DNA from: an uncultured Clostridia bacterium
Lineage (GTDB): Bacteria; Bacillota; Clostridia; TANB77; CAG-465
DNA length: 64,000 nucleotides
Assembly (NCBI GenBank): GCA_944388585.1
Contig: CALXJI010000005.1
Span: 96,012 to 160,011, forward strand
Direction of reading: 5' to 3'
The translations under genes were made by a program, and so were the position numbers. Below are positions 9,882 to 36,952 of this stretch, piece after piece (within the stretch, counting starts at the first letter, position 1; each line of letters starts with the position of its first letter). The notes under the pieces were generated by a model that saw only the letters and a program-made list of their open reading frames with translations, did not search any database and was not told the origin of the DNA.

Positions 9882-10098
9882 TGTGCGACTTACAAGTAGC
9901 TTAAATTGCTATTGTAACTTTTATTATTTCGTAGTATAATATTTATATATTTTTACTACGCATATCACGTGATAAAACAATTATAAGCGACAAAAACCTT
10001 GAAGTCAATGCATTTTCTTTGAATTTGTTAAAGTGTAGGAGTAGTAAAAAATGTTGAAAAAAGTGAATTTTTTTACTACGCAATTTAGGAGGAAAAAG

Positions 10099-11262: not shown

Positions 11263-11314
11263 TGGTATGACTATTCCTTTTTATACCGTATGTCAAAACT
11301 AATCATTTTTCCAA

Positions 11315-12016
11315 CTAATTTTTTCCACAATTTTTTTGTTCTAAGAGTTGCACAACAATGTCTGGATATGAATTTTGCATTTGAATAATACTACTATATT
11401 GAAGTTCAACCATTTCAAATTTTTTTGAATCTTCTATTTGTTCACCAAATACTAATTTGTATATTTTAATTATAATATTATGAGCATAATCTAATAAAAT
11501 AGGAATTTCATTATATGCAGGTATTTCATCAGCTTTAAAACTTTTTATTCCCAAATCATAAGATTTATCCAAATGTGCAACATTTTTATCCCTCAAGGTT
11601 TTAAGATTATCTAAAGCTTTCATATTTTCCAATTTTTCTAATTCAGATTTAGCATATTTTATTATTTCTGAATTTTTTTTATTAAGAAGTTTATTACATT
11701 GAACACAATTTAACATATAAAATACTGTAATTGAATCATTACTAGAGTCATTATCATAAATTTTAGCTAATTTCATAAATAAAGAGTATTGTAATCCATC
11801 AATGACAGAACAATAGTACTCTTTATATTTAGGCATTTTACTAAAATCCATACACATTCTATCAAATAATAAATATTGTGATTTAGCAAAAAAAATCTCT
11901 CTATATAGCAAGTCAACTCTCTTTTTAAACTTGTCTATTTCACATTTTTGAATTTTTGTTTTAGTTTCTTCCATAATACTCACGCCGAATTTATATATTC
12001 GACAGCCTCCTCTCAT
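11315..12016 (-). CDS. Hypothetical protein with a HEPN-like Rx4-6H motif (RDKNVAH); possible Abi-like cargo
   Basis: Predominantly alpha-helical; RDKNVAHLDK fits the HEPN catalytic motif. Start ambiguous (M1 or the internal MEETKTK). Confidence 0.35.
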   Translation of the reverse strand: MRGGCRIYKFGVSIMEETKTKIQKCEIDKFKKRVDLLYREIFFAKSQYLLFDRMCMDFSKMPKYKEYYCSVIDGLQYSLFMKLAKIYDNDSSNDSITVFYMLNCVQCNKLLNKKNSEIIKYAKSELEKLENMKALDNLKTLRDKNVAHLDKSYDLGIKSFKADEIPAYNEIPILLDYAHNIIIKIYKLVFGEQIEDSKKFEMVELQYSSIIQMQNSYPDIVVQLLEQKNCGKN

Positions 12017-12366
12017 TTTTGGTTATATTTTACCATATTATATTTTTTTGAACAACTTTTTACAAAAATAAAAAATATATATAACAATAGTTAAAAAATA
12101 AGTGTTACTGTTTTTATCTTATAACTAGGTAAGATAGCAACACATTTTTTTATATCATATTTTATTTTTCCAATTGGATTTAAAAATCATACTCAATGTA
12201 TCACATTAGAAATTCTGATTTATTCAAAGAAAATGTGTTATTTGTTTATATTTCAATACTTAGAAAGCATTTTATAAAAATAACTTTTAGTAAATGTAAT
12301 AAAAAATATGTACGAATTACATTCAATGTATTATAATGTATAAAAATTTAAGGAGATGTATGTAGT

Positions 12367-12936
12367 ATGAATTTAGTAGAACCAATTAGAGATTTGAACA
12401 AAATCGAAGAAATGAAAAAAGTATTATTAGAACAAGGAAAAGGCAAAAGAAATTATCTTATTTTCAAAGTAGGTATAAATATTGGTATAAGGGTATCAGA
12501 TATTATAAAGCTTAAAGTAAGTGATATTAGATATGAAAATGGTACTATGCGAGATGACATTACAATTATAGAAAAGAAAACAAATAAAAAGAAGACATTT
12601 AGATTTAATATCGAATTAAAAAAAGAACTAGAAGATTACACTAAACAAATGCAACAATATGAGTATATTTTTAAAAGTAGGAAAGGAGCTAATCAACCTC
12701 TTACGCGCACGCAAGTATATAGATTTCTTAATGATGCAGCAAAAATGGTTGGTATCACTGATAGTATAGGAACTCACACTATGAGAAAGACCTTTGGTTT
12801 CCACAACTATAAAAAATATGCTGATGTTGCTATGTTGCAAACAATATTTAATCATAGTAGCCCTAGTATCACACTTCGATATATAGGTATATCACAAGAT
12901 GAAATCAACAATATGTATGATGACTTTTGCTTATAA
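12367..12936 (+). CDS. Short tyrosine recombinase, FimB/FimE-like (catalytic domain only, 189 aa)
   Basis: KRNYLIFKVGINIGIRVSDIIKLKVSDI parallels FimB ARNYCLTLLCFIHGFRASEICRLRISDI. HxxR box in GTHTMRKTFG. His and Tyr in FNHSSPSITLRY. Confidence 0.8.
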   Translation: MNLVEPIRDLNKIEEMKKVLLEQGKGKRNYLIFKVGINIGIRVSDIIKLKVSDIRYENGTMRDDITIIEKKTNKKKTFRFNIELKKELEDYTKQMQQYEYIFKSRKGANQPLTRTQVYRFLNDAAKMVGITDSIGTHTMRKTFGFHNYKKYADVAMLQTIFNHSSPSITLRYIGISQDEINNMYDDFCL

Positions 12937-12967
12937 GTTAATATAATTTTATATCTTAATAATAAAA
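12930..12967 (+). repeat. 38-bp repeat copy A (cttataagttaatataattttatatcttaataataaaa), followed directly by aaaagtgtctt (12964-12974), which matches the element end-arm motif
   Basis: Near-identical (3 mismatches) to 20232..20269. The 18-bp core taatataatttaatatct also occurs at 17781..17798. Confidence 0.6.
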
Positions 12968-13011
12968 GTGTCTTAAAATATAAATATGAATATCACTTTT
13001 AGACAAATTAG

Positions 13012-13055
13012 TCAAAAAATGAGAGTAGTACCATAGTATTACTCTCATTTATTCT
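13012..13055. terminator. Bidirectional rho-independent terminator between convergent genes
   Basis: aatgagagta - 12-nt loop - tactctcatt, a perfect 10-bp stem flanked by A-run and T-run. Confidence 0.6.
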
Positions 13056-13066
13056 ATGTAATAAGC

Positions 13067-13603
13067 TTAAAAATTTGATGAATTTAAGCGATTTATCACA
13101 TTTTCTTTTTTTATATCTACAACCTCTTTATAAGTAATTCCATCAGCATTAGGTGCAAATCCATAATAAAACTTACTTCCATACAATTTTTTTAGTGTTT
13201 GATTTGTTGTAGTACATTCTACAATATAAATTCCATTTACCTCTTCAATTGTTTTAACTGTAAGTTCATTCTCTCTACACTCTTCTCCTAAATACTGTCT
13301 TGCATGATTCTCTGCCCAATATCTATTTTCTTGTAATGGAGTAGGAAAGAAAATAGGTTGCACAATAAATTTCCAACCACAAAATATAAAAATAATAACT
13401 ATAATTATATAAATAATTAATCCTTTTGTACTTGAATTATTTGTCACATTATTATTATTATTATCTTCTTCAACATTGAGTTTATTTTCAACATTTTGTT
13501 CAACATTACTATTATTTTCTTCATTTTTACTTATAGTTTGTCCACACTTATCACAAAATTTACTATCATCATCAATTTGACTTCCACAATTTTTACAATA
13601 CAT
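13067..13603 (-). CDS. Zinc-ribbon (CxxC...CxxC) membrane-anchored hypothetical protein
   Basis: MYCKNCGSQIDDDSKFCDKCG N-terminus, an Asn-rich linker, one TM helix and a C-terminal globular domain. Confidence 0.5.
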   Translation of the reverse strand: MYCKNCGSQIDDDSKFCDKCGQTISKNEENNSNVEQNVENKLNVEEDNNNNNVTNNSSTKGLIIYIIIVIIFIFCGWKFIVQPIFFPTPLQENRYWAENHARQYLGEECRENELTVKTIEEVNGIYIVECTTTNQTLKKLYGSKFYYGFAPNADGITYKEVVDIKKENVINRLNSSNF

Positions 13604-13620
13604 AACCTTTCAACCCCTTT

Positions 13621-14655
13621 TTAATTTTTATATTCTTTATTTTCAATAAATAAGTCTAATATTCTTTCTAATTCTTCCATTAGATTTAATAAATCACTAA
13701 CTTTATATTCTTCACTTAATTTTATCTTTGCTAAAATCATTGACTCATTAGCTTGTCTTTTATTAAATTTTTCAAACTTTATATTACTTTTATTTGAAAA
13801 ATATTTTTCTATTTTATCTTGTAATTTATTTCTTTCATCTTCATTATATTTTAAATTACCATTTTCTTTATTTTCAAAGCGACCTCTAATTCTTAATTCA
13901 TATTTACTTTTATTTATATTTGTTTCAAGATATAAATAATCTAAGAAGTAATTCTTATCTAATCCTCTTATATACCAAGTATAAAATACACTACCTCTAA
14001 CTCTACCAACACCACATTTATTTATTTCATTTTTTTCACTATGACTACAATATACATTTGGTAATTCATATTGTAGATATTGTTCCATACTAATTTCTTT
14101 CAATGAAAACTTTTTAATATTCTTACACTTATATTCTATCAAACTTAAATAATTGTAATAATCAATGTAAATATCATTTTTTATATGATAATTTTCCATT
14201 ATTTCAAGCATAAACTTTCTATCAATTAATACATCTACATCAATTTGATTTGGTTCATAAAACATCTTATAATATGTAGTTATTATATTTTCTTCCTTTA
14301 TTCCTTTATTAATTAATTTATTTTTATATTTGTTTATTTGATTACTATGTTCTGAAGTTAGTTTCTTATCTTCAATTATAATGTATATTGTTTCATTATT
14401 TTCATTTTCAAAACTTATTAAAACATCTATATTTTTATCTTGTTTTAATATTTTTACATTATTATAATCATTGAACTTTAAATTTCTTTTAGTGTTTTTC
14501 TTATTATACTTTTCTATAATTTTATCTAAAAACTTTTTTGATACTTCATACAATTCTGAATTTTCTTCTTTGTGATTAATCCACTCTACCAACCAACAAA
14601 TAAAAGCATCTTGACTAAGCTCCTTAGTCGCATATTTGAATATGTTATTTTCCAT
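13621..14655 (-). CDS. Hypothetical protein, candidate PD-(D/E)xK nuclease fold
   Basis: NIDVLISF ... IYIIIEDKKLTSEHSNQ gives a D...ExK arrangement. RBS GGAGG at 14662-14668. Confidence 0.35.
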   Translation of the reverse strand: MENNIFKYATKELSQDAFICWLVEWINHKEENSELYEVSKKFLDKIIEKYNKKNTKRNLKFNDYNNVKILKQDKNIDVLISFENENNETIYIIIEDKKLTSEHSNQINKYKNKLINKGIKEENIITTYYKMFYEPNQIDVDVLIDRKFMLEIMENYHIKNDIYIDYYNYLSLIEYKCKNIKKFSLKEISMEQYLQYELPNVYCSHSEKNEINKCGVGRVRGSVFYTWYIRGLDKNYFLDYLYLETNINKSKYELRIRGRFENKENGNLKYNEDERNKLQDKIEKYFSNKSNIKFEKFNKRQANESMILAKIKLSEEYKVSDLLNLMEELERILDLFIENKEYKN

Positions 14656-14675
14656 ATAAAAACCTCCTCATATTA

Positions 14676-14692
14676 TATGACAATATGTCATA
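14676..14692. promoter_or_regulatory. Palindromic operator candidate TATGACA-ata-TGTCATA in the divergent promoter region
   Basis: 7-bp perfect inverted arms between the RBS of 13621..14655 and the XRE gene. Confidence 0.4.
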
Positions 14693-14763
14693 CTAATTAT
14701 ACCAATTTTCAACTTTTTTTACAACCCTTTTATTGTTATAATTTAATAAAAGGAGTAGATAGA

Positions 14764-15132
14764 GTGGATAAAATAAAGAAAAACAAAGAAATTTCACCCA
14801 AAAAGAATTTACAAAAAATTAGGGAAGATAATCATTACTCACAAAGAAAAGTCGCTGAAGATAATAATACTTATCAAGAAGTTATATCTAGGTTAGAGTC
14901 TGGAACTAGGACTTCAAATATTGAGTTTATAATGCAATTAGCTAACTATTTTCATTGCTCTACAGACTATCTTTTAGATTTAACAAATGACCCAACTCCA
15001 ATATCTATTTTATCTTCTAAAAGTGATTTAAGCGAAAAAGAAAAGTATATTTTAAGAGAATATAATTCTTTAAGTGATGATAACAAACTAAGATTAGAAG
15101 GCATATTAATTGCATTAAAAAGCATACAATAG
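14764..15132 (+). CDS. XRE-family helix-turn-helix transcriptional regulator (GTG start after AAGGAG)
   Basis: LQKIREDNHYSQRKVAEDNNTYQEVISRLESGTRTSNIEFIMQLANYFHCSTDYLL is a classic HTH_3. The upstream part of the track ORF overlaps the convergent gene and lacks an RBS. Confidence 0.7.
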   Translation: MDKIKKNKEISPKKNLQKIREDNHYSQRKVAEDNNTYQEVISRLESGTRTSNIEFIMQLANYFHCSTDYLLDLTNDPTPISILSSKSDLSEKEKYILREYNSLSDDNKLRLEGILIALKSIQ

Positions 15133-15249
15133 TGTAATAATACTTTTGTATGCTTCTTTTTTCTCCTTTATATCTTAAATTAACTTTCTACTAATAGATA
15201 TAAATTTATATAACTAAGTATAGAAAGTTCTTCTAAATAAAACCTCATT

Positions 15250-15600
15250 TCAATGGTTATTATTTAATTTTATAAAGTTATCAAAAAATATCTTAAACAC
15301 TTTTTCATTATCTATCTCATAAAAGTAATCTATAAAATCATATTCCTTATTATAACTATCTTTCTTAAATATACCAACAATATTTATAGCGAAAAAACCA
15401 CTATGTGTGTTAAAAAATTCTTTTACTACTTTTTCTTTTATATCTCCAATAATACATAAGAATAGTGGAGGTATATTATAGTTTAAATCTTTAAGTTCAT
15501 CACTATATACAATTTTTACATTATCATTTAAAACTATATCTTTTATTATTTCTTTACCAAATACTCCTAATGGAATTACCACTATATCTTGAATTTTCAT
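15250..15600 (-). CDS. Hypothetical protein (116 aa), 4-bp overlap with the upstream gene
   Basis: ATGA overlap coupling with 15597..15974. Confidence 0.45.
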   Translation of the reverse strand: MKIQDIVVIPLGVFGKEIIKDIVLNDNVKIVYSDELKDLNYNIPPLFLCIIGDIKEKVVKEFFNTHSGFFAINIVGIFKKDSYNKEYDFIDYFYEIDNEKVFKIFFDNFIKLNNNH

Positions 15601-15974
15601 CTCTCCTTTTTTATTTCATAAACAATAAATTTTACATTAAGTACAATACTAATACCCTCTAATATTCTAAATGTTTCATTATTTGTTCTTTCCTTAAATC
15701 TATTATTGTTTTTAATTTTAGATAGGTTAATTATTACTATACTATTATTAAAGTTTTTTAGTTCTTTTATTAAGTTATCTAATTTATATGTAGTAAAATA
15801 TTCAACATTATCTTTACCATAAAATATATCATCATCTTTATATAACAATACTTTTGAAGTAGGTAGGTTAAATTCTTTTCTTATAATATCTACATCTTTC
15901 TTTTCCTTATCAAATATTTCCATTTTATATATACTTTCCTTTTTAATTCCTACATCTAACAAAAATAACCCCAT
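15597..15974 (-). CDS. Hypothetical protein (125 aa)
   Basis: Operon partner downstream of the HTH-WYL-like gene. Confidence 0.45.
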   Translation of the reverse strand: MGLFLLDVGIKKESIYKMEIFDKEKKDVDIIRKEFNLPTSKVLLYKDDDIFYGKDNVEYFTTYKLDNLIKELKNFNNSIVIINLSKIKNNNRFKERTNNETFRILEGISIVLNVKFIVYEIKKER

Positions 15975-16071
15975 AATGAGCCTCCAAACTTATTTATTTA
16001 GAGTATATCATTTTGAAGTTATTTTGTATATGAATTTTATACTATGAATTTTTCGCTGGTCTAAAAATGTA

Positions 16072-16761
16072 TTACTTATTTTTTTCTTCATCTAAAAACT
16101 CACACTCTTCATCTAAAATTTTTATATCTTTCATACTACTTAATAAAATTCCAATATTATTATTGAGTGTATTATTTGTTCCTATAACTATATAATTAAA
16201 AGGTGTAAGTACTTTAAATTTCCTATACACAATATATTGTGGAGAGTATATAATATTCTTTCCATTATGTATAAATTGTATCTTTTTCTTTTCTTCTATT
16301 GCTTGTGAAACTATTTCTAAACTATTTACTAATTCCCAATTCTTTGTTTTTTGTTCTTTCATTTTTGCTATATTTGATTTTAGTTTTTCTCTATCAAATA
16401 TATTAATTTGTTTTTCTAATTTATTTACCAAAAGATTTGATGTTTCTTCATTTATATCATTAGCTAACTTTATTTGATTTATAATCATAATAATTTCTCC
16501 TAATGTGAAGTCTATATCTATATTTTTAATATAATAATAACCTTTGCGATTATCATTATATGTAGATATATCATAACCAAACTTTTCTATAAGTAAGTTT
16601 ATATTTCTTCTTATAGTTCTACTATCTATATTTACATCATAATCTTTCTTTATCAATTCTTTTATATCATTACAACTTAATATGTGTTCATCATCACTAT
16701 ATTTTTTTAGTGTATTCAACACATATAGTATATTTCCTTTATTTTCATTTCCTTTTTCCAA
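16072..16761 (-). CDS. Putative transcriptional regulator, N-terminal HTH (HTH_11-like) plus C-terminal WYL-like domain (BrxR/CapW-like architecture)
   Basis: ILYVLNTLKKYSDDEHILSCNDIKELIKKDYDVNIDSRTIRRNINLLIEKFGYDI fits the DeoR/HTH_11 pattern. C-terminal IQFIHNGKNIIYSPQYIVYRKFKVLTPFNYIVIG is WYL-like. Confidence 0.4.
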   Translation of the reverse strand: MEKGNENKGNILYVLNTLKKYSDDEHILSCNDIKELIKKDYDVNIDSRTIRRNINLLIEKFGYDISTYNDNRKGYYYIKNIDIDFTLGEIIMIINQIKLANDINEETSNLLVNKLEKQINIFDREKLKSNIAKMKEQKTKNWELVNSLEIVSQAIEEKKKIQFIHNGKNIIYSPQYIVYRKFKVLTPFNYIVIGTNNTLNNNIGILLSSMKDIKILDEECEFLDEEKNK

Positions 16762-16827
16762 TTAAACCACCTTTCTATATTATACAAAATTAGTTTGTAA
16801 ATCACAAGTAACAAGAGTAACACTTAT

Positions 16828-17061
16828 TTATAACATACCTTTTCTATTTAAAGTTCTTACAATTTCACTTCCTAAACCTGTTCTTAAAGTTTTAAATATA
16901 GAATTAAAATATATACTCTCTTTTCTATATTTGGTATAGATATAGTCATTACAATTACTCTTATGAGTTTCAATATATAGTTTTATTCTCTTTTGAATTT
17001 CACTATTTTGTGGAATATTACTTAGTATTATTTCTACAATATCTAAATCATCTTCTCTCAT
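16828..17061 (-). CDS. Hypothetical protein (77 aa)
   Basis: 4-bp overlap with the upstream ORF. Confidence 0.4.
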   Translation of the reverse strand: MREDDLDIVEIILSNIPQNSEIQKRIKLYIETHKSNCNDYIYTKYRKESIYFNSIFKTLRTGLGSEIVRTLNRKGML

Positions 17062-17387
17062 AGTAGTCTCCTTTTTAAATCAAATCTTTCCATATACTTC
17101 TTTATTTTTTCTTCACTTAAAGATATAGTCTCTCCATTTTCTTGACCTACCACTAAAAAATCTCCAACTATAATATCTCCAAATTCATATAAAACTAAAT
17201 TAGGAGATAGACTTAATAATTTACCCTCATCATTTATAATAATATCTACATCATCTTCTAACTCTACAATATCTATTAGACCACCTACATACTTTTGTAG
17301 AGTAGATAGGTTATTTTCTATCTCTATTACTTTTGGTTGTTCAAACACTTTTACTAAAATACATCTTAATTTTTCCTTTTTACTCAT
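17058..17387 (-). CDS. Hypothetical protein (109 aa)
   Basis: RBS-preceded ORF; first gene after a 465-bp repeat-rich intergenic region. Confidence 0.4.
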   Translation of the reverse strand: MSKKEKLRCILVKVFEQPKVIEIENNLSTLQKYVGGLIDIVELEDDVDIIINDEGKLLSLSPNLVLYEFGDIIVGDFLVVGQENGETISLSEEKIKKYMERFDLKRRLL

Positions 17388-17853
17388 TTTTTATCTTCCT
17401 TTATCATAAATTTAAACTTTTTATTCCATTGATTCCATATTAAACCTAGATTAAATTTTATATCTTTTTATATTAGTTATATATCTTTAATACAAAAGTT
17501 TCTTTAAATTAAACCTAGATTATCACTTTTGAAAAACAATTAAAATATGGTATTAATACTAAAAAATGACCCACATAGAGTCTATCTCTATATGAGTCTA
17601 TCTACTAAAATATACAACAAACTAAAATCTACTACCACTATAAACACCACCTTTAAACTTAAAACTAAACCTCTTATCTTAGTATAATTTTAAATTGTGA
17701 TTTTTCAAAAGTACATACTTTTTCTTTAAGTTTTAGAAAGTTTTAAGTGGGTGTCCATTTAAAGAACTTTACCTATTAAGTAATATAATTTAATATCTAT
17801 AAGTAGAAAGTTCCTTAGGATTAAATCTGGAATTAGTGGGTTATATTTAAAGT

Positions 17854-18045
17854 TTAATTCTCTCCTTTATTGTATTGGAATAAATATCTACTTTTTATAA
17901 ATTCATCTAAATCATCTTCTCTAATCATAAAACCTTTACCCATATAGATAGCTTTTAGTTTCTGCTCTGCAATATAACTTCTTATAGTGTGAGGTGTTAC
18001 TTTTAAAATGTCTGCTACTTCTTTTACTTTGTAAATATTAGTCAT
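17854..18045 (-). CDS. Excisionase-family / MerR-like HTH DNA-binding protein (63 aa)
   Basis: VKEVADILKVTPHTIRSYIAEQKLKAIYMGKGFMIREDDLDEF matches the excisionase-family DNA-binding pattern. Confidence 0.6.
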   Translation of the reverse strand: MTNIYKVKEVADILKVTPHTIRSYIAEQKLKAIYMGKGFMIREDDLDEFIKSRYLFQYNKGEN

Positions 18046-18121
18046 TGTGTTATCACTCCTTTTATTTAGATATACTTAATATATATCTTTCATATAAATA
18101 TATAGAAAGTGTGATAAAATC

Positions 18122-19696
18122 TTATTTTTTATATAGTTTAGATAATACAATAACCTTTTTATTAAGGTATAAAGAATAAGTCTTTTTCTCTTTTTGATAA
18201 GATAGAATAGAGGAGATAGTTTTATTATTAAGAGAAATATATTTTATACCAATTTTAGATAAGTCTTTAATAAGTTGAGTATCTTTATTAAGATGTCTCC
18301 TTACAAACTTCTCAGTACCATTTAAAATATTATTATAAGATAATCCATTGTTTTTTCTTTCTTCATTTAAAACTCTTAGAGAAGTAATTAAATCTTCAAT
18401 AGTAATATAACCATACTTTTGTAAATCAGTGTTATTAGATAAAATAGTGTATATATATTCAATAGTTTTAATATCTCTATTTTTATATTTATTCTCTAAA
18501 TTACTATTTCTATATATTAGTTGAGAAGAAGTGTTACCCGTGTTCCTTGTAAGTAGTGAGTAAGTTATATTTTTATAATAATTTAATAAGTCCTTAGATA
18601 TAAAGTCTATATTTATAAAATCTTCTTTTAATAAATATGGAATAATTAGAGTAGTAGGTCTTTGTTTAGATTTAAAATAGTTAGTATTATTTTTTACACT
18701 ATCTAATCTTTTAAATATATTTAGTAAGTAGAGTATTTTTATTTTCTTACTATAACCTCTAATTTCTCTAAATATATCTTTTATAGATAGAGTAAGTAGT
18801 ATATTATCTTCTATTATTAAGTAATTATTAGGAGTATGTAAATAATTATATTTTAGTTCTTTTATTATAGGTATAAAATCTATCTTTTCTAAGAGTAGTT
18901 TAAAATTACTATTTTGTTTTAGACTAGTTAGTTTGTTTATTACTTCTAGATTATTTATTATAGTTCTATGTACTATATATCTATCATAAGAAGATATTAT
19001 TCTATCTATATTAGTAGGAGAAAATGCACTTTTTTTAGTATATTTTTTTACATTACTAAAAGTAACTCTATTATTACTCTCTCTAACTATAGAAGTATTT
19101 TTTTTAGTTAGAGTTTTAACATTATTAAATAATAAATAATCACAATACCTACAACCAAACCATTTATCTATATTTTTATTACTATCTTTTTTTATAACAC
19201 TATCTATTATGTACTTATTCATCTTTTGTAAATATCTAGTGTCTTTCTCATATTGTTGGTTAATCTTTACAATATGTTGCAGTTTAAGTAACTCATTAGA
19301 AGAATAAACCACAGTATATTGTTTATTATCTCTATGTTTTATATTATCTAAGTGTGATACTAATTCTAAATTACAAAGTCTATTATCTAATTTATCTTTA
19401 TTAATGTGATTTACCTCATAATCTTTATCTAATAATTCCTTTAATTTAACATCATACCTACTATAAAATTCTATTATTACTCTTTGTAGAGTAGTTACAA
19501 CATTATCTAATTTTCTTAGAACTAAATAATCATTTTCATTTACTCTTACATTGTGTAGTTCCATTATATTTAACAAATATCTAATCAAACTACTATCATT
19601 ATCAATTTTTCCTGAAACACTATTATTTATCATATTATAAATTAAGGTTGTTGTTTCATCATAATACAATAAAAGTGTCATATTATCTTTTATCAT
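18122..19696 (-). CDS. Hypothetical protein (524 aa), N/K/Y/I-rich
   Basis: Long uninterrupted ORF. Its DNA is conspicuously rich in TAG, AGTAG and TTAG on the non-coding strand, unlike flanking genes. Confidence 0.45.
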   Translation of the reverse strand: MIKDNMTLLLYYDETTTLIYNMINNSVSGKIDNDSSLIRYLLNIMELHNVRVNENDYLVLRKLDNVVTTLQRVIIEFYSRYDVKLKELLDKDYEVNHINKDKLDNRLCNLELVSHLDNIKHRDNKQYTVVYSSNELLKLQHIVKINQQYEKDTRYLQKMNKYIIDSVIKKDSNKNIDKWFGCRYCDYLLFNNVKTLTKKNTSIVRESNNRVTFSNVKKYTKKSAFSPTNIDRIISSYDRYIVHRTIINNLEVINKLTSLKQNSNFKLLLEKIDFIPIIKELKYNYLHTPNNYLIIEDNILLTLSIKDIFREIRGYSKKIKILYLLNIFKRLDSVKNNTNYFKSKQRPTTLIIPYLLKEDFINIDFISKDLLNYYKNITYSLLTRNTGNTSSQLIYRNSNLENKYKNRDIKTIEYIYTILSNNTDLQKYGYITIEDLITSLRVLNEERKNNGLSYNNILNGTEKFVRRHLNKDTQLIKDLSKIGIKYISLNNKTISSILSYQKEKKTYSLYLNKKVIVLSKLYKK

Positions 19697-19802
19697 AGTA
19701 ATTAACTCCTTTACTTAAAATAAACTAAAAGTATATACACTTTCTAAGTAAATATATATAATTACTATCAAAAAATTAATAAAATGACACTTTTTAAATT
19801 GT

Positions 19803-20120
19803 TTAATCTTCCTTATTCTTATTATTTTCAAATACTTCACACATTAGAGTAATGCCGGTAGTAAGTCCATCTCTAAAATATAAGTTATCCATAAAAGAAT
19901 TTCTTGCATTAGACATATCCATATAATCTTTTACACAATTTAGTATATTATCATAATCCTTTTTATCTATTGTGTCTTTTAAATACTTATATCTTTTTTC
20001 TAATTTTTCTCCAAATTCATTATAATCTTTTCTTTCATATTTAGTCATCGAAGGTAACCTGCCCTCTAATACATCAAATAGTTGTTGTAAAATTTTTTGT
20101 TCTTCAACTCCATTTTCCAT
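19803..20120 (-). CDS. Hypothetical protein (105 aa)
   Basis: First gene of the long minus-strand operon inside the element's right end. Confidence 0.45.
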   Translation of the reverse strand: MENGVEEQKILQQLFDVLEGRLPSMTKYERKDYNEFGEKLEKRYKYLKDTIDKKDYDNILNCVKDYMDMSNARNSFMDNLYFRDGLTTGITLMCEVFENNKNKED

Positions 20121-20231
20121 AATGTAAATTCTCCTTTCTATGAGGTAAATTATATATAGTTGGAATAGAGAAGTACATATTTTTTCTACATTTTATAAAA
20201 TTGATTCCACATTTAATTGTGGAGTATTTTA

Positions 20232-20269
20232 CTTATAAAATAATATAATTTAATATCTTAATAATAAAA
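20232..20269 (+). repeat. 38-bp repeat copy B (cttataaaataatataatttaatatcttaataataaaa)
   Basis: Direct repeat of 12930..12967. Confidence 0.6.
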
Positions 20270-20349
20270 ATTAACTAGAATTAAACCTCATTAACTCTAG
20301 TTATATTTTTAATTAAATATTTGTATATAAATTTATAAGAAAATATTTG

Positions 20350-20441
20350 TGTACATTAAAATACATTAGTTGTACAAATATATGTATATTAGATTTTATT
20401 TATTTTTATATAGTTTGAAGTTACTTAGTACAAAATGTACA
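20350..20441. repeat. Second cluster of TGTACA hexamers, in the promoter region of the 19803..20120 operon
   Basis: TGTACA at 20350, 20371 and 20436, GTACA at 20428. gtacaaaatgtaca is the reverse complement of tgtacattttgtac at 6215-6229. Confidence 0.5.
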
Positions 20442-20485
20442 AAAAAATTTATATATTATTTTATATTAATATATATAAAAAAAAG

Positions 20486-20543
20486 AACAGTATTTCTACT
20501 ATTCTAAAATTTTACGTATACATATACTGTGTAGAATACTGTT
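20486..20543. terminator. Long inverted repeat (aacagtatttctac ... gtagaatactgtt, 13-14-bp arms, 31-nt spacer) followed by a T-run, just inside the element's right end
   Basis: Read directly from sequence. The hairpin is flanked by an A-run and a T-run, so it can act in both directions. Confidence 0.4.
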
Positions 20544-20592
20544 TTTTGGTCATTTCTTCTATTCTTTCTTCTCTCAAAATCAAAAGTGTCTT

Positions 20593-20862
20593 TTAATAGG
20601 TCATTACTTTAGTAACTGATGCTGGTAACATATGTTCATTTTCATTATTTGCATATAGTATTTTCCCTGTAGTAGGTTCCATTAAAATCTGAGAATAAGA
20701 CTCAAAAGTAAAAGACGGATTTGCAACAGTTGAAATACTACTTTCAATTCCCTCATTTTTTACTTTATATAAATACCCTACTCCCAAAATATAATTACAA
20801 TTTATTACATTTATCAATAACATACAAACTATTATTTTAAAAAACTTATTCACATATTCCAC
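20593..20862 (-). CDS. D-alanyl-D-alanine carboxypeptidase, 5' part (signal peptide plus SxxK active-site motif), truncated by the element
   Basis: Signal-peptide-like N-terminus. Ends ...MLPASVTKVMTY*; the active-site SVTK is followed immediately by the junction. Confidence 0.8.
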   Translation of the reverse strand: MEYVNKFFKIIVCMLLINVINCNYILGVGYLYKVKNEGIESSISTVANPSFTFESYSQILMEPTTGKILYANNENEHMLPASVTKVMTY

Positions 20863-20966
20863 CTCAATACAGTTTATTACTTTATTAGGTAAAATATTAT
20901 TAATTTGAACATATTAATATTTTAACAAATAAAAAAGCACTTCATGTTTGACGTGCTCTTTTTTAA

Positions 20967-21206
20967 TTATCTTTCCTTTTTTAATTTATTACCATAAACT
21001 TCAATTACAAATTTTATAGTTTCTTCATTTCCAGAATAAATTTCATCTCTTTGTTTTGTATAAAGTTCATTTCTTTTATTTAGTTCTTTAATTATTTTCT
21101 CATCTGTTTCTCTTTCAAGTGCAAATAAATTATCTGCTATCATCTCTGCTATTATCTCAATTGCAACATCTGTGTTCATTAATTTGTTATTAAACATAAT
21201 TATCAC
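20967..21206 (-). CDS. Hypothetical small protein (79 aa)
   Basis: ORF with helical, charged sequence. Confidence 0.4.
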   Translation of the reverse strand: MIIMFNNKLMNTDVAIEIIAEMIADNLFALERETDEKIIKELNKRNELYTKQRDEIYSGNEETIKFVIEVYGNKLKKER

Positions 21207-21341
21207 CTCTTTATTAAATATATCATATATTATATCATATTAAAAAAATATGTATTTACATATATTATCTACATTAATTTTAAATTATTTTTACTAAAGT
21301 GTACTTTTATTAATTTAAATTAATTATATAATAATTACTAA

Positions 21342-21578
21342 TTAATCTGACTCTACATCATTGAATAAATTATCTGCAAAAAACTCAGATAAAGTTAAAT
21401 TAAAGACTTCACATATATGAAGTAACGTATCTAATTTTAATAATTTGGTTTTCCCGTTAAGAAACGTAGTTATAGTCGAACATGGTATGCCTGATTCTTT
21501 GCAAACATACCATATGTTTACGTCATGCTCTTTTAAAAGATTATTTACTTTTAGTCTAATAGCATCCGATAGTTGCAT
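21342..21578 (-). CDS. XRE-family HTH transcriptional regulator (78 aa)
   Basis: IWYVCKESGIPCSTITTFLNGKTKLLKLDTLLHICEVFNLTLSEFF. Confidence 0.7.
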   Translation of the reverse strand: MQLSDAIRLKVNNLLKEHDVNIWYVCKESGIPCSTITTFLNGKTKLLKLDTLLHICEVFNLTLSEFFADNLFNDVESD

Positions 21579-21740
21579 AACTACGCTCCTTTCAAAATTA
21601 GTATAACAAATTTTAATGTTTTACTACTTGGGCGAATTGAAGTGATCTGCATTTTACTTCAATTTACCCAAGTAGCTTTTTTGTGACTTATGTTATAATT
21701 ATTGGTAAATATTTTAATAATATTTATTAAGGAGGATTTT

Positions 21741-21884
21741 ATGTACGGAAAAATAGATGATATTTTAAAGAAAAAATACGATGAAATTGTAATTCCACCA
21801 GATATATTCGATTTTGATAAAATATTTAAAAAATATAATGAACTTTATAAAAATAAAAGAAGAAATAAAAAAAGAAAAAATTAA
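21741..21884 (+). CDS. Small basic-tailed hypothetical protein (47 aa; ATG after GGAGGA)
   Basis: RBS ggagga 5 nt upstream; C-terminal KNKRRNKKRKN. Confidence 0.3.
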   Translation: MYGKIDDILKKKYDEIVIPPDIFDFDKIFKKYNELYKNKRRNKKRKN

Positions 21885-22120
21885 TTATTATTTTTGCTAT
21901 TAATATATAGCATTATTTTTTAAATATAAAAAATATAAAAATGAATATAAAATTGATATATAAAATTTAATAAGATAATTTAAATATAATTTGATAAAAT
22001 AAATCTGAATTGGTGTTAAGTTAGAAAACAATATTAGTAAAAATATATATCTTCCTTTTATTTAATATACTAAACTCTTTATTGAAAATCAACAATATAC
22101 TAATAATAATTCTTATACAA

Positions 22121-22149
22121 AAAAAGAATGCTAAAAAGCATTCTTTTTT
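22121..22149. terminator. Bidirectional terminator hairpin overlapping the last codons of 22131..22676
   Basis: aagaatgct - aaaa - agcattctt flanked by A-run and T-run. Confidence 0.55.
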
Positions 22150-22676
22150 AATTTCTCTTCTACACTATATTCATTGAAATAATCCATTTTTCCTTTAAAA
22201 AATTCATCATTAAGTTTAATAAATTGTACATCTTTATAAAAAGCAGCCTTTTTGCAAAAGCTTCTATCCATAGTAAGTGAATTAACAGGATCAATTATAT
22301 AGCAATTCTCAGCCATTACAATATACGTTAATATCCTTTCTCCTTCATTTCCTCTAGACAATAAATAAATATTAGCCTTTATATTTAATAAATCCAATAT
22401 ATATTTTATAGTCCTTGCTACTCCTAAAGATGTTGCTTTTTTCTCAATAAGAGCAGAATACATAGAATTATACTCATCATTTATTTGATCTTCATAGACT
22501 AGTGTATCAACAGCAGTATCTACAAAAGAGATTGTCGCTTTCATATAGTTTTCTAATGCAGATGAAATTTCTCTAGGGTCGCTACTATATTTTTTTATTA
22601 ATTCTATTATCCCTTTTAAAACCAAATTTAATTGATATTCTTCTGCTTCTTTTTGGTTTAATTCTTTTCCAGACAT
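22131..22676 (-). CDS. Hypothetical protein, paralog family member 1 (181 aa)
   Basis: Shares the A-x-S/C-x-G-V-A-x-x-I-x-x-L-L core with 23520..24266 and 24276..24926. Confidence 0.5.
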   Translation of the reverse strand: MSGKELNQKEAEEYQLNLVLKGIIELIKKYSSDPREISSALENYMKATISFVDTAVDTLVYEDQINDEYNSMYSALIEKKATSLGVARTIKYILDLLNIKANIYLLSRGNEGERILTYIVMAENCYIIDPVNSLTMDRSFCKKAAFYKDVQFIKLNDEFFKGKMDYFNEYSVEEKLKKNAF

Positions 22677-22752
22677 ATATTTTTCCTCCTTTAAATTTAA
22701 AGTTAGTTAATATTTTTAGCTTTATGTATTATATCATTTTTTGTACTTTATG

Positions 22753-23517
22753 TCAACTATTCAAAATATAGTTTGTAGCAATCTTAATTACTTCTTCTAA
22801 TTCTCCAGGTTTTTTAAATCTATGATCAGCACCTTTTACCATATATAATTTGACATTTTTACTAAATTTCTTTTGAAACTTTATAGAATCTTCTATAGGT
22901 GCCATATCATCCAAAGTTCCATGAATTATCAATATATTATCTTTTTTATTATATACTTTAAATAAATCATTTTTAGTCAATTCCTCATAATATTCTTTTG
23001 TAATTATAATATTGCGTTCAAAACCTAATATACACTTTTCTTTTTTCAAAAATTCATTTAATGGTATTTTTAAAATATTTTCTTCAAATATTTTTCTCAT
23101 ATTTAATGCTGGACATCTTAAAACTATTGAATTATATATTTTAGTGCCCTCGTTAATTTTCAATAATACTACATATGCTCCATAACTTGTAGCAAAAAAT
23201 CCTACTTCTATATTATTAAATTTCTCTTCAATATAATTTTCAACATCATTTATATCACTTATACAATTTTCTACTTTATAATTATACCCATTCGTATTAC
23301 TTATTCCATGCCCTGGAAAATCAAATGTAATAACTCCTATATTATAATTTGTCAGTGATTTTGCTAAATTAATTATAGCTGAGCTTTTCTTATCTCCTCC
23401 AAATCCATGACATGCTATTATAATTTTTCTAACATTTCTATCATCTGGAAGATACAAATCACAAAAAATTTTGTATAATTTTTTAGATGAAACTATATTA
23501 ATTTCTTCCTTAATCAT
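22753..23517 (-). CDS. Alpha/beta-fold hydrolase
   Basis: HGFGGDK, nucleophile elbow GFFATSYGA, and HGTLDD...ADHRF. Confidence 0.7.
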   Translation of the reverse strand: MIKEEINIVSSKKLYKIFCDLYLPDDRNVRKIIIACHGFGGDKKSSAIINLAKSLTNYNIGVITFDFPGHGISNTNGYNYKVENCISDINDVENYIEEKFNNIEVGFFATSYGAYVVLLKINEGTKIYNSIVLRCPALNMRKIFEENILKIPLNEFLKKEKCILGFERNIIITKEYYEELTKNDLFKVYNKKDNILIIHGTLDDMAPIEDSIKFQKKFSKNVKLYMVKGADHRFKKPGELEEVIKIATNYILNS

Positions 23518-23519
23518 AA

Positions 23520-24266
23520 TTATACCTCCTTAATGTCTTTTTGAATATCATCTAAATTTGTTACAAGATTATATTCTTCATCAATTTTCTTCATATCAAG
23601 ATCTATAATATTAGATGTTTGCTCTCCTAGTCCATTTTTACCAACCTTATTTTCTATAAATTCATCAGGATTTTTTTCAACTATATATACCTTTTTTCTC
23701 ATATATTCCTCAAAATCTTCTCCCTTTCTCTCTCTATTAGCTTGACGCTCTGGATCTAAAACTACTTTATGCTCTTTTCCATCTTCTGATTTATAATTTG
23801 CAACTGTCAAATAATGAAAAAAAGGTTTTAATCTTTTTTGCCCTGTCTCTAATTCATAATGAGTATCTGGCAATGCTGCTAAATGTGTTTCTGTATCTAT
23901 GCCATTTACTTCTAATAGAAGTCTTGTAGCCTCACTAAATCCTACACATATAGCTTCTTTTTCAAAAAAAGCAGAAAATGCTGTCCTATATCTTAACTGA
24001 CTATTTTCAATTTGAAGATTCTGCTTCATTGCATCAAAATATGTTTTATTAAGCGATACATTTTCTTTCATATATCTATTCACATTATTTATTTTTTCGA
24101 CATCTGAAAATTCTTCTTTACTATTATTTACAACTTTAGAATAATCTAACAAATAGTCTTTAAGTATTTCAAGCATATCCATATTATAAAATTCCTCACC
24201 ATGTAAATCATCACCTATTACTTTTCTCATAGCTTTTTCAACAATCTCTTCATGATCTATACTCAT
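23520..24266 (-). CDS. Hypothetical protein, paralog family member 2 (248 aa), retains Cys in the shared core (AICVGFSEA...LLEV...H)
   Basis: YRTAFSAFFEKEAICVGFSEATRLLLEVNGIDTETH; possible transglutaminase-like/papain-like Cys-His arrangement. Confidence 0.45.
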   Translation of the reverse strand: MSIDHEEIVEKAMRKVIGDDLHGEEFYNMDMLEILKDYLLDYSKVVNNSKEEFSDVEKINNVNRYMKENVSLNKTYFDAMKQNLQIENSQLRYRTAFSAFFEKEAICVGFSEATRLLLEVNGIDTETHLAALPDTHYELETGQKRLKPFFHYLTVANYKSEDGKEHKVVLDPERQANRERKGEDFEEYMRKKVYIVEKNPDEFIENKVGKNGLGEQTSNIIDLDMKKIDEEYNLVTNLDDIQKDIKEV

Positions 24267-24275
24267 AATATCCTC

Positions 24276-24926
24276 CTAAACTTCAAATAATTTACATATG
24301 TTATCTTTTCCATTAACAAATTTAATATTTTCTTTATTTAATAATTCTTTTGCATTTATACCATATCCATTCGGAAAAACTTTATTTTCAAAAAAGCTAT
24401 TATTTGGTAAAATATATGTTGCTTTATTTAAAATTTCATTATAATCCCACATATTTCTATTACAAGATTGTTCAAGTAGTGGAGCTATAACAAAATATTT
24501 ATTATTATTATTTTTTACTACTACAGCATAATTTAATATTTTATTATCTAAAGTGTATAGTATTGTTTTATTTTCTATATTTTCTACTTCTAAAAGTATA
24601 GATATTGCTTCTGCCACTCCAACAGACATAGCTTCTCTTTTTACAAAAGCAGCATATGCAGTTCTATATATCATCTCATCTTCATCAAATTCTAAATCAT
24701 CTCCATATTCATACTCACCATATTGTGCTCTTTCTTTAACAGTAGATAAAATATAATTATTTATTCTTTTTACTTTTTCTTCAATATTTTGATAATCGAA
24801 ATTCTTGTTTTCATACAAGCTACAAATAATAGAACTTACAATCCTATTTATACTTTCTGTATGCACTCTATCTAGATACATAGGATCTTTTGATATTTTA
24901 TCTACAATTTGAAAATATTTATTCAT
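24276..24926 (-). CDS. Hypothetical protein, paralog family member 3 (216 aa), Cys replaced by Ser in the shared core
   Basis: YRTAYAAFVKREAMSVGVAEAISILLEVENIEN. Confidence 0.45.
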   Translation of the reverse strand: MNKYFQIVDKISKDPMYLDRVHTESINRIVSSIICSLYENKNFDYQNIEEKVKRINNYILSTVKERAQYGEYEYGDDLEFDEDEMIYRTAYAAFVKREAMSVGVAEAISILLEVENIENKTILYTLDNKILNYAVVVKNNNNKYFVIAPLLEQSCNRNMWDYNEILNKATYILPNNSFFENKVFPNGYGINAKELLNKENIKFVNGKDNICKLFEV

Positions 24927-25038
24927 ACAATCACCTTATTTCAATTATAATATATATTCTAAAATTAAACCATACGTTTGAAAACTATTATACATTTTTT
25001 TTACTTTTCTACATATTAATATTATAAAGGAGGTAATT

Positions 25039-26286
25039 ATGAATCCATTTGATTTTTGTAGTCCAATAACAAATCAAAAATATTATAATTGGAAAAATAT
25101 ATATCCAATGCCATATGATAAAAATACTACTAGCCCTTATACAAAAGCTAGAGTAATACTTATGAACGGATGTGAAACAGAGCAAGTTTTCTTTCTACAT
25201 CAGTTTAGTAGAAATTGTTCAGATAATGATTTAAGAAGAGAAATTGCAAAATTAAGAAGAATTGAACAACAACAGCAAAAACTAGTACAATGTCTAAAAC
25301 CAATTAATGAAAATATATTAGAAGAAACAATAATATATGAACTACTTGCTGTAGATCTAACTGCTAGACTTGCAAAATGCGAACCAGATGTATATGTAAA
25401 ACAGGCACTAGATTTTGCATTACTAGAAGATTTTGACCATTTATATAGATATTCAAATCTTATGAAACTTGAATATGGAAAAAATGCAGAATATTTAGTA
25501 GGAAGATATACTGAAATAATGCCAGCAAGACCTACAATTTCACATCATAGACACCCAGTTGATACAATAAGACGTGCAACAAATTCAGAAGCCTCAAATA
25601 TTACTAAGTTACATTGCAATATTATAACTGCTGCGGAACAACAAACCATGAATTTTTATATGAATGTATGTAACTTATATCCTTCTGATTTGGGAAGAAG
25701 ATTATATCAAGAAATTGGAATGGTCGAAGAAGATCACGTAACGCATTATGGAAGTTTATTAAATACAAATATGACTTATTTAGAAAATTTAGTTATGCAT
25801 ATGTACACAGCATGCTATTTATATTATTCTTGCCTACAAGATGAAGATAATCAACAAGCAAAATGTGTTTGGAAAGAGTGTTTTTATCAAGAAGTGGCAA
25901 ACTTAAAAAAATCTGCTGATTTACTAGAAAAATACGAAAATAAACATTGGTCTTGCGTAATTGCAGATGGTGCTTTTCCAGGACTACTAACACTTGGCCC
26001 TAATGTAGAATATATAAGAGATGTAATAAAAAATACTGTTACAAATACAACTTTAAAAGAAGATTATTGTCCTGTAAATCTTATGCCTTTAGATAGTAAC
26101 TTCTTTGAATATCAAGCAATTGTAAATTCAGATATTGAATGTGTACCAAGTCACAACGTTATATGTAAAACAATAAATAAATTTAGTGCAGATTATAGAT
26201 ACGAAAAATCTCCAAATCCAATACCTGATCTTCAAACAAGAAATGTAGATAATGTGACACTAGGAAGAGTTCCAAACTCAAAATAA
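25039..26286 (+). CDS. Ferritin-like diiron-carboxylate superfamily protein (415 aa), function unknown
   Basis: Two E...ExxH motifs: ELLAVD...LLEDFDH and AAEQQ...MVEEDHVTH. RBS GGAGG. Confidence 0.5.
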   Translation: MNPFDFCSPITNQKYYNWKNIYPMPYDKNTTSPYTKARVILMNGCETEQVFFLHQFSRNCSDNDLRREIAKLRRIEQQQQKLVQCLKPINENILEETIIYELLAVDLTARLAKCEPDVYVKQALDFALLEDFDHLYRYSNLMKLEYGKNAEYLVGRYTEIMPARPTISHHRHPVDTIRRATNSEASNITKLHCNIITAAEQQTMNFYMNVCNLYPSDLGRRLYQEIGMVEEDHVTHYGSLLNTNMTYLENLVMHMYTACYLYYSCLQDEDNQQAKCVWKECFYQEVANLKKSADLLEKYENKHWSCVIADGAFPGLLTLGPNVEYIRDVIKNTVTNTTLKEDYCPVNLMPLDSNFFEYQAIVNSDIECVPSHNVICKTINKFSADYRYEKSPNPIPDLQTRNVDNVTLGRVPNSK

Positions 26287-26312
26287 AGCTCCCCATTTGG
26301 GGAGTTTTTTTG
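26287..26312 (+). terminator. Rho-independent terminator
   Basis: agctcccc-attt-ggggag followed by ttttttt. Confidence 0.7.
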
Positions 26313-26320
26313 GATTTATT

Positions 26321-27007
26321 TTAATTAAAAACTAAGCTTAAATTATTATATGGAATTTCTACTTCAAATATTCCAGCTACATATGGTGCTACTGTATATG
26401 AATTAAAGATAATAACAAAAGAATCTTTGGTAAATATAAAATTTTTATAATTATCTAGATCTTTTTGTAATCCGTTTTCTAACCACTCTTCATTTGAATA
26501 TTGTTTTATATTAGTATCATCTTTTAACTTATTATAGCATTCTGAATAAAATAAATCTAAAATATCATTATTTTTTTGTTTTAAATAATCTATATCTATT
26601 ATAGTGTCTTCTATGAAGCTTACTGTAAATATTTCTTCTATATCATGACTTATTCCAACATTACTTTTTATAATAAATTTAAAACTTTTATAATCTTTAT
26701 ATTCATATTCTTCAAACGAAATTTCTAATTTTTTCTTATCTGTTGTAAAACTTGCATTTTCAAATTTACTTTTATAATAATCTATTTTTTTTATAATAGT
26801 GTTATTTACATTCTGATATTCTGTTACTGGATAAAATATATTTATTTTTTTATTATCGTCTTCTATACTTATATTCTCTATTTTATATTCTTCAGAATTA
26901 TTTATAACATCTTTTACTTCTACTGTATCTGTATTAATAGTTACAATTTTTGATGATGCTATTATTACTAAGCATAATAAAAGAGCAAGTAATCTTTTAT
27001 GATTCAT
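26321..27007 (-). CDS. Exported hypothetical protein (signal peptide)
   Basis: MNHKRLLALLLCLVIIASS signal sequence. Confidence 0.5.
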   Translation of the reverse strand: MNHKRLLALLLCLVIIASSKIVTINTDTVEVKDVINNSEEYKIENISIEDDNKKINIFYPVTEYQNVNNTIIKKIDYYKSKFENASFTTDKKKLEISFEEYEYKDYKSFKFIIKSNVGISHDIEEIFTVSFIEDTIIDIDYLKQKNNDILDLFYSECYNKLKDDTNIKQYSNEEWLENGLQKDLDNYKNFIFTKDSFVIIFNSYTVAPYVAGIFEVEIPYNNLSLVFN

Positions 27008-27053
27008 ATTATCACCTAAAACATTATATGCTCTTATTTGTTATTTTATTATA

Positions 27054-27461
27054 TTATTTCTCATCAAAATCAAAAGGCACACTTAAAAAAAATTTTACTT
27101 TTTGATTTATCTCTAATCCATCAATATAACATATTATATCTATATCTTTACACATATCCACAATATACTGTAAACACACTCCACAAGGAATAAGTGTTTT
27201 ATCAAATTCTTTACTATCTTTACTTTTACCTACAACTGCAATTGCAATAAAATCTTTATCACCATGAGATATAGCGTTTTGTATAGCATTTCTTTCAGCA
27301 CAAACTGACAAATTTGGAATTTTAGTGTCTTCTACATTAACTCCAATATAAACAGTTCCACTTTTAGCAAGTAATGCAGCACCAACCATATATCCAGTAG
27401 TAGGTGAATATGCATTTTTGCATGCATTTTTTGCAATATTTATTAAATCTTCTTGTTTCAT
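27054..27461 (-). CDS. cdd: Cytidine deaminase
   Basis: CAERNAIQNAI and PCGVCLQYI zinc-binding motifs. Confidence 0.85.
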   Translation of the reverse strand: MKQEDLINIAKNACKNAYSPTTGYMVGAALLAKSGTVYIGVNVEDTKIPNLSVCAERNAIQNAISHGDKDFIAIAVVGKSKDSKEFDKTLIPCGVCLQYIVDMCKDIDIICYIDGLEINQKVKFFLSVPFDFDEK

Positions 27462-31671: not shown

Positions 31672-31799
31672 CCTCCTTTTTTATTAAAAAAATTTTTTTA
31701 TTAAAACGATGATGACATTATAGCACTTTTTGCCGAAAAAGTCAAATTATGTAAACGCAAAAATAGCTTAGAAAACTTTCTAAGCTATTTTTTAGTTAA

Positions 31800-36825: not shown

Positions 36826-36952
36826 TTAAATCCCTCCTATAACAATAGTTATTATACTATTTTTAAATATTATAGTCAATATTGCATAATAAATGCATTA
36901 CTAAAAAATGATAAAATCCTGCTTAATTTTTATATTAAACAGGATTCTTTCA

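Follow-up and report, generated by a model that had tools for sequence, protein, structure and literature searches.

In streptococci, TglA of S. pyogenes (9crn) and the TGase of S. suis serotype 2 (4xz7) have a papain-like fold with catalytic residues in the order Cys-His-Asp, and 4xz7 has been placed in PF01841 as a streptococcal virulence-associated transglutaminase (PMC10318531). Here, we analysed a cluster of four genes in a stretch of 64,000 nucleotides from an uncultured Clostridia bacterium (contig CALXJI010000005.1, positions 96,012 to 160,011 of the forward strand); this whole stretch is called the window, and position 1 is its first letter. Three of the genes, named copy1, copy2 and copy3, are paralogs, and the fourth encodes an alpha/beta hydrolase. 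Copy2 shares the fold and the Cys-His-Asp order with the two streptococcal proteins. However, those proteins are 360-380 amino acids (aa) long and show only ~13% identity, whereas the three copies have 181-248 aa, are predicted to be cytoplasmic and lie below the Pfam cut-off. The family in the window also differs from the streptococcal proteins in having motifs of its own (YRTAY, DPER and NKxGxxGxG) and a dedicated esterase partner. We favour, with moderate confidence, the reading that the four genes form a cytoplasmic module in which two hydrolases are partnered by non-catalytic paralogs.

Other described systems were compared with the cluster. LapG/BTLCP (4fgo) and the putative proteases 3isr and 3kd4 were considered as bacterial transglutaminase-like cysteine proteinases. 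LapG is periplasmic and calcium-dependent, and its partners are LapD and LapA. In contrast, LapD and LapA are not in the window, and the window proteins carry no export signal. Tgl of Bacillus subtilis is a small, signal-less spore-coat transglutaminase of a spore former, and no Tgl-type enzyme was present among the copy2 fold matches listed. For the hydrolase, L. johnsonii LJ0536 (3pf8) and Butyrivibrio Est1E (2wtm) are alike in size and in the Ser-Asp-His arrangement, but the identity is low and their substrate specificity is not transferable. We know of no such cinnamoyl or feruloyl esterase that is paired with a transglutaminase-fold gene and, to our knowledge, bacterial pseudoenzymes encoded beside an active paralog have rarely been described. 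A search of the literature on TglA/9CRN and on this gene combination returned nothing usable.

Catalytically dead paralogs with the transglutaminase fold are known in eukaryotes, where band 4.2 (EPB42) and FBXO21 have been retained for binding or scaffolding (PMC10318531). Band 4.2 was found among the fold matches of copy2. However, EPB42 and FBXO21 belong to eukaryotes, have several domains and lack an active paralog encoded next to them, whereas the dead copies described here are small bacterial proteins that share an operon with the putative enzyme. The fold, the superfamily and the dead eukaryotic paralogs are already known; what is new is an unannotated bacterial subfamily, its fixed pairing with an esterase, and a pseudoenzyme lineage that lies within the operon and has a consensus promoter to itself.

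Copy2 (23520-24266, minus strand, 248 aa) is the putative active enzyme of the cluster, with a triad Cys107-His151-Asp171. Its match to the Pfam family Transglut_core (PF01841) reached 14.5 bits (E 0.044), below the cut-off of 23, and the Pfam scan gave no match to this family for copy1 or copy3. Among 34 family members, PF01841 was matched by eight at E<=0.01 (best, 7.2e-6), and DUF553 and Peptidase_C39 were reached by two each. The best NCBIfam match of copy1 was weak (E 2.8e-4) and pointed to the Mycoplasma MAG6410 family of transglutaminase-related lipoproteins. A search of PDB sequences returned TglA (9crn) as the sole match, through the helix of the catalytic Cys.

The structure of copy2 was then predicted with AlphaFold2. 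The model based on the 34-sequence alignment had a predicted local distance difference test score (pLDDT) of 89.7 and a predicted TM-score (pTM) of 0.89; it replaced an earlier, mediocre model based on a 4-sequence alignment (pLDDT 69.7), and the top Foldseek matches were unchanged between the two. In this model C107 starts a helix, H151 starts a strand and D171 comes after the next strand, which is a papain-like arrangement. We also aligned the family with the protein encoded at L004:3021-4298, which passes PF01841 at 56.5 bits. This comparison with hhalign had a probability of 96.9% (E 1.6e-10) and paired C107, H151 and D171 of copy2 with the Cys, His and Asp of that protein. An earlier note on this DNA, made from the letters alone, had guessed at a transglutaminase-like or papain-like core in the middle copy and had proposed a multiple alignment and structure prediction; both bear out the guess for copy2. 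Within the transglutaminase-like (papain-fold) superfamily, the family forms a small branch of cytoplasmic proteins that has so far gone unannotated.

C107, H151 and D171 are conserved in 100% of 31 active-type relatives, and the same holds for Y76, R94 and G214. Of the 34 columns conserved in the family, copy2 keeps 31. Because it has the full Cys-His-Asp triad together with the family motifs, it is likely to be an active cysteine enzyme. Within the cluster, C107 and the downstream H151, as well as D171, occur in copy2 alone, as the note had said of the Cys and His.

The three copies are only 21-29% identical to each other. However distant, their similarity was significant in BLASTP: copy2 and copy3 matched at E 1.2e-15 (29% identity over 159 aa), copy1 and copy3 at E 1.3e-9, and copy1 and copy2 at E 1.2e-5. 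When a profile was made from relatives in other organisms alone, it scored 219.6 bits for copy2, 156.6 for copy3 and 34.4 for copy1, and it aligned nearly all of copy3 and ~150 residues of copy1. These E-values, the independent profile scores and the extent of the alignment argue for real paralogy and not for the sharing of one low-complexity helix, which the note had named as the finding that would speak against its proposal. The three copies are thus judged to be true paralogs. The literal motif that the note had ascribed to all three is present in copy2 and copy3, whereas copy1 reads YNSMYSALIEKKATSLGVARTIKYILDL, a looser version.

Copy3 (24276-24926, minus strand, 216 aa) is the first gene of the operon. 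It is a full-length paralog with Ser, Asn and Ala at the Cys, His and Asp positions, and it keeps 19 of the 34 conserved columns, including YRTAY, G109, E112 and the C-terminal NKx..G.G, while the DPER motif is lost. It is nearer to the main-family protein P0009 (36%) than to copy2 (29%), and the idea that it arose by a recent tandem duplication of copy2 was rejected on this ground. Its homologs were found only at >=98% identity and no ortholog came from outside this species. Copy3 is therefore a species-specific, full-length paralog without any of the three catalytic residues.

Copy1 (22131-22676, minus strand, 181 aa) belongs to a small, degenerate branch and has Ser, Thr and Asp at the triad positions, with 11 of the 34 columns kept. 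Its orthologs are P0037 (52%), P0050 and P0055, and the small paralogs of L001 and L040 enter the branch through P0055. None of the six members of this branch, copy1 included, has a complete triad. Identity between lineages is 29-52%, and the small branch is best read as an old pseudoenzyme lineage, not as a fresh product of decay. The loss in copy1 and copy3 of a triad that is invariant in the active-type relatives fits the suggestion of the note that both are pseudoenzymes.

It may be asked whether the two copies without Cys are simply decaying duplicates, that is, pseudogenes in waiting. Their catalytic residues are lost, and between strains copy1 varies more than any other gene of the block (13/546 nt, with a ratio of nonsynonymous to synonymous polymorphism, pN/pS, of about 0.5 by the Nei-Gojobori method). 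However, the open reading frames (ORFs) of copy1 and copy3 were full length in every strain examined, on hundreds of contigs, and 19 of 34 conserved columns without a catalytic role persist in copy3. The age of the small branch also speaks against decay, as do the position, promoter and leader that it has kept, as described below. We consider decay quite improbable.

The promoter of copy1 lies at 22728-22756 on the minus strand. It consists of TTGACA-17-TATAAT with a TG extension, a 12/12 match to the sigma-70 consensus, and its -35 element overlaps the stop codon of the hydrolase gene. An exact TTGAC[AT]-17-TATAAT is found ahead of the small paralog in five of six lineages (the window, L001, L040, L045 and L046), and the sixth, L037, has a TTTACT/TGgTATAAT version. 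In L040, this promoter is inside the end of the hydrolase gene. The 64-kb window contains five exact TTGACW-N17-TATAAT sites, compared with 0.13 expected by chance. Such sites presumably mark a handful of very strongly transcribed genes. The other four are all on the minus strand, at 9980-10008, 31717-31745, 36851-36879 and 38334-38362.

Between this promoter and copy1 there is a conserved leader, CTAACTTTAAATTTAAAGGAGGAAA (22682-22706, minus strand), which combines a palindrome, CTTTAAATTTAAAG, with a strong ribosome-binding site. The window, L006, L045 and L037 share it almost without change, although the encoded proteins have an identity of only 52% and 29%. The general form is CTAACTTTAAATTTA[AG]AGGAGGAAA, again with the palindrome, and it was located at 1220-1245 in L045 and at about 455-480 in L037. 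This leader could serve as an operator or in the control of translation.

The alpha/beta hydrolase (22753-23517, minus strand, 254 aa) is a putative serine esterase whose gene starts 2 nt past the copy2 stop. Its Pfam match to Hydrolase_4 (PF12146) was 58.3 bits against a cut-off of 27, in agreement with the earlier annotation. The nearest solved relatives are cinnamoyl, feruloyl and chlorogenate esterases, which are small and intracellular, and an MHETase-like enzyme; 3pf8 was matched at E 2.8e-13 and 2wtm at E 8.6e-8, and two newer alpha/beta-hydrolase entries scored higher. In 11 aligned hydrolases, HGF, the nucleophile Ser (xSxG), the Asp and the His are invariant. The triad motifs are the Ser in FATS[YF]G, the D of DDxAPI and the H of GADHR.

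Orthologs of the hydrolase with 39-71% identity are encoded directly downstream of the family gene in L001, L010-14, L016, L017, L019, L020, L021, L040 and L047. The alpha/beta hydrolase is the recurrent genomic partner of the family, with a count of 12 divergent loci in addition to the window. The order of enzyme, hydrolase and small dead paralog was found in the window, L001, L040 and L045, and in L045 the hydrolase is preceded by only a remnant of the family gene. There, at 1-411, the copy2 ortholog is cut to its last few dozen codons with unrelated sequence before them, and the hydrolase, the small paralog and its consensus promoter are intact.

How such a module may work can be outlined. 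The cysteine enzyme and the serine esterase would act on one cytoplasmic substrate or pathway, and the chemistry would be hydrolysis or transfer at an amide or thioester bond together with an ester bond. The dead paralogs would be kept as non-catalytic binding partners of the enzyme or of its substrate, in the role of regulator, inhibitor or adaptor. The small paralog would probably be constitutive and in excess.

Several points weigh against this reading. About one third of the relatives, those of the conjugative-element type, have no hydrolase, so that the coupling of enzyme and hydrolase is not obligatory. The hydrolase and the small paralog are not strictly dependent on the enzyme either, because both persist in L045 beside a stub. 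The pN/pS of copy1 is 0.2-0.5, but it is based on 6-13 substitutions, too few to prove purifying selection. A physical interaction between the paralogs is purely inferred. If the module is as proposed, its simple genetic layout would help in the study of how dead enzymes control live ones. What had been an anonymous cluster of hypothetical proteins becomes a testable case, with an invariant triad, an esterase partner and an old lineage of dead paralogs that has conserved high-strength expression signals.

The same expression signals could also be explained by an enzyme-antidote pair. Copy2 would then be a potentially harmful protein-modifying enzyme (a protease, deamidase or cross-linker), which an excess of the small paralog would neutralise through mimicry or heterodimerisation, much as in toxin-antitoxin or immunity pairs, and copy3 would be a second decoy. 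The strong promoter and ribosome-binding site of the small paralog, conserved across five or six lineages, fit such a pair. So does the small paralog that outlasts the decayed enzyme gene in L045, like an orphan antidote, as well as the presence of relatives on conjugative elements. However, PADLOC and PHROG gave no match, a small paralog is absent from most of the family (types A and B), the cluster is fixed in the chromosome and not mobile, and the interposed, co-evolving esterase would be left unexplained. We consider this explanation unlikely. In detail, PADLOC was run at E<=0.1 on the three paralogs, the hydrolase, a neighbouring 415-aa protein and three relatives without any match, and PHROG had no match for the paralogs.

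Relatives elsewhere were sought with a word-indexed search of 5.8 billion proteins and, exhaustively, with HMMER among 1.84 billion representatives. The word-indexed searches returned almost nothing beyond the same species, save one protein of 43% identity. The HMMER scan gave 183 matches at E<=1e-3, 43 at <=1e-10 and 27 at <=1e-30, mostly of 210-330 aa; the family was revealed only by this exhaustive scan and not by the word-indexed searches. A scan of GTDB representative genomes found only two distant, secreted transglutaminase-like proteins. A tblastn search with copy2 had no match in phage and plasmid collections, and a scan of IMG/VR with the family alignment found no relative. The family is small, with members only in low-GC Firmicutes of the gut and the environment, and its practical value is limited.

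The surroundings of these relatives were of two kinds. Of the hydrolase-coupled loci, at least L010 lies among housekeeping genes, such as those for aminoacyl-tRNA synthetases, in a low-GC genome, and frequent neighbours of this type are CYTH, NUDIX, PHP, MBL, nucleotide pyrophosphatase and RNase_T genes. In six metagenome loci without the hydrolase (L018, L022, L023, L024, L027 and L028), the family gene comes directly after an array of nucleotide-enzyme genes, which are thymidylate-synthase-like, NTPase_I-T (DUF84), guanylate-kinase-like and Ham1-like. Where the flanks were annotated, conjugative-element genes were present: L023 has a topoisomerase, a thioester adhesin and a VirB4/TraG-like ATPase in addition to TrbL_4, while a serine recombinase gene flanks L018. 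The array in these six loci has the look of a cargo operon that mobile elements carry for modifying or sanitising nucleotides.

This context raises the possibility that the family serves nucleotide or small-molecule metabolism, the establishment of mobile elements or anti-defence, with the cysteine enzyme as a small-molecule amidase or acyltransferase that is not directed at proteins. Arylamine N-acetyltransferases share the transglutaminase-like fold. The neighbours elsewhere (CYTH, NUDIX, PHP twice, MBL, nucleotide pyrophosphatase, RNase_T and a xanthine/uracil permease) agree with such a role, and so does the array that precedes the family gene in the six conjugative-element loci. However, the enrichment of these neighbours is putative, and the neighbours in the window are not nucleotide enzymes, save cdd three genes away. 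We take this role to be distinctly unlikely.

A bolder idea, which we think unlikely, would join these observations. The cluster would be a self-regulating module, not described before, of enzyme, esterase and pseudoenzyme, in which the ancient dead paralog, in excess through its exact consensus promoter and conserved palindromic leader, gates or neutralises the active one, and conjugative elements would have recruited the family beside nucleotide-sanitising genes. If true, it would imply a role in conflict or establishment rather than in housekeeping. A separate candidate, a leader peptidase of the McjB type for lasso peptides or other ribosomally synthesised and post-translationally modified peptides (RiPPs), was rejected; no Asn-synthetase-like cyclase, RiPP recognition element (RRE, PqqD-like) or precursor was found among the neighbours, in the window or beside the relatives.

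The cytoplasmic location assumed in the two-hydrolase reading was examined by hydropathy. The maximum over 19 residues was <=1.37 in copy1, copy2, copy3 and the hydrolase, compared with 2.58 in a secreted DUF3298 protein used as a control, and the scan found no signal peptide or transmembrane segment in any of the four. All four proteins are therefore predicted to be cytoplasmic. The absence of such segments argues against a direct action on the cell wall.

This bears on the suggestion of the note that the genes could form a spore-coat or cell-wall-modifying set. Such a set would cross-link the coat or modify the wall and would be tied to the adjacent dac gene and to sporulation sigma factors. 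YabP/YqfD sporulation genes are near the cluster, coat enzymes likewise lack signal peptides, and the cluster adjoins dac and the DUF3298 gene. However, the copy1 promoter has the sigma-70 consensus, and no CATA-type -10 element of sigmaE or sigmaK was found upstream of copy3, where 24927-25038 was inspected. The relatives do not sit in sporulation loci but adjoin genes for aminoacyl-tRNA synthetases or are carried by conjugative elements. With proteins that are apparently cytoplasmic, no Tgl-type enzyme among the fold matches listed and, as shown next, a cluster that is indifferent to the state of dac, we regard a spore-coat or cell-wall set as highly improbable.

The dac gene, which encodes a D-Ala-D-Ala carboxypeptidase, is indeed interrupted, as the note had reported. 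Its N-terminal 89 codons are at 20593-20862, and the rest (Peptidase_S11 positions 42-239 and PBP5_C) is at 3286-4257. The two parts are separated by an element of ~16.35 kb (about 4255-20599), which encodes a large serine recombinase (4196-5926) and is flanked by an imperfect 11-bp repeat, GTCATAACCTT / GTCATTACTTT. Metagenomic contigs of the same species showed both an intact dac of 403 aa and the interrupted form, and the block of five genes from the 415-aa gene to copy1 was unchanged in both. This rules out the cluster as a part of the dac element and lends no support to the functional grouping with dac. The exact copy3 sequence was present on 218 contigs and the core gene yqfD on 139. Because the cluster is unchanged in both dac states and its contig counts match those of yqfD, it is a fixed chromosomal feature that is independent of the element. 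The operon is a stable chromosomal feature of a low-GC, spore-forming clostridial species.

The dac element also holds an AbiU2-like gene, a tyrosine-recombinase fragment, an HNH protein gene and an HTH_17 excisionase-like gene, and it can be likened to the recombinase-bearing intervening elements of sporulation genes. An ORF of 77 aa inside it, at 16828-17061, weakly matched the Mycoplasma family MMB_0454 of NCBIfam (E 0.0019).

The gene on the other side of copy3 encodes a protein of 415 aa (25039-26286, plus strand). The note had labelled it a ferritin-like diiron protein and had grouped it with the cluster. We found no support for the label in sequence searches: Pfam gave no match, the PDB had none below E 0.2, and the sole NCBIfam match was FeExpMbfA at E 0.13. 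When its sequence was read for the two E...ExxH metal-binding helix pairs of such proteins, VEEDH gave one ExxH and LEDFDH gave DxxH/ExxxH. Homologs with 37-58% identity occur on C. botulinum group III plasmids, in Subdoligranulum, and in actinomycetes and proteobacteria; Streptantibioticus, Nonomuraea, Tistrella and Pandoraea are among the carriers. They are mostly annotated as hypothetical and have differing neighbours without the genes of the module; the Tistrella homolog is beside DUF4142 and DUF892 genes. Given these independent contexts, the 415-aa gene was rejected as a part of the module and its functional grouping with the paralogs is not supported; the protein is probably outside the module.

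The region between copy3 and the 415-aa gene (24927-25038) is a divergent intergenic region that would carry the promoter or promoters of the copy3-copy2-hydrolase genes and of the 415-aa gene. It contains TTTTCA-17-TAGAAT, TGTATAAT and a ribosome-binding site, AAGGTGA. At the other end of the operon, a bidirectional terminator-like hairpin (22120-22149) with a 13-pair stem followed by a T-run overlaps the copy1 stop codon. Together with a second terminator-like hairpin at 26285-26308, it brackets the block. An Rfam scan over 20000-27200 returned only a sub-threshold Phe_leader match, at the 26285 terminator. The ORF coordinates given previously were exact, and all four ORFs are on the minus strand.

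The cluster had also been placed between two XRE regulators. One helix-turn-helix (HTH) flank was confirmed, a Pfam HTH_26 protein at 21342-21578, which is the sole HTH gene flanking the cluster; on the opposite side, the DUF3298 gene and cdd are found instead of a second regulator. A functional grouping of the cluster with XRE regulators thus found no support. Between this HTH gene and copy1, a small ORF without a known family (21741-21884, plus strand) converges on copy1. It encodes 47-60 aa with a Lys/Arg-rich tail, KNKRRNKKRKN, and was called as a gene in every strain examined.

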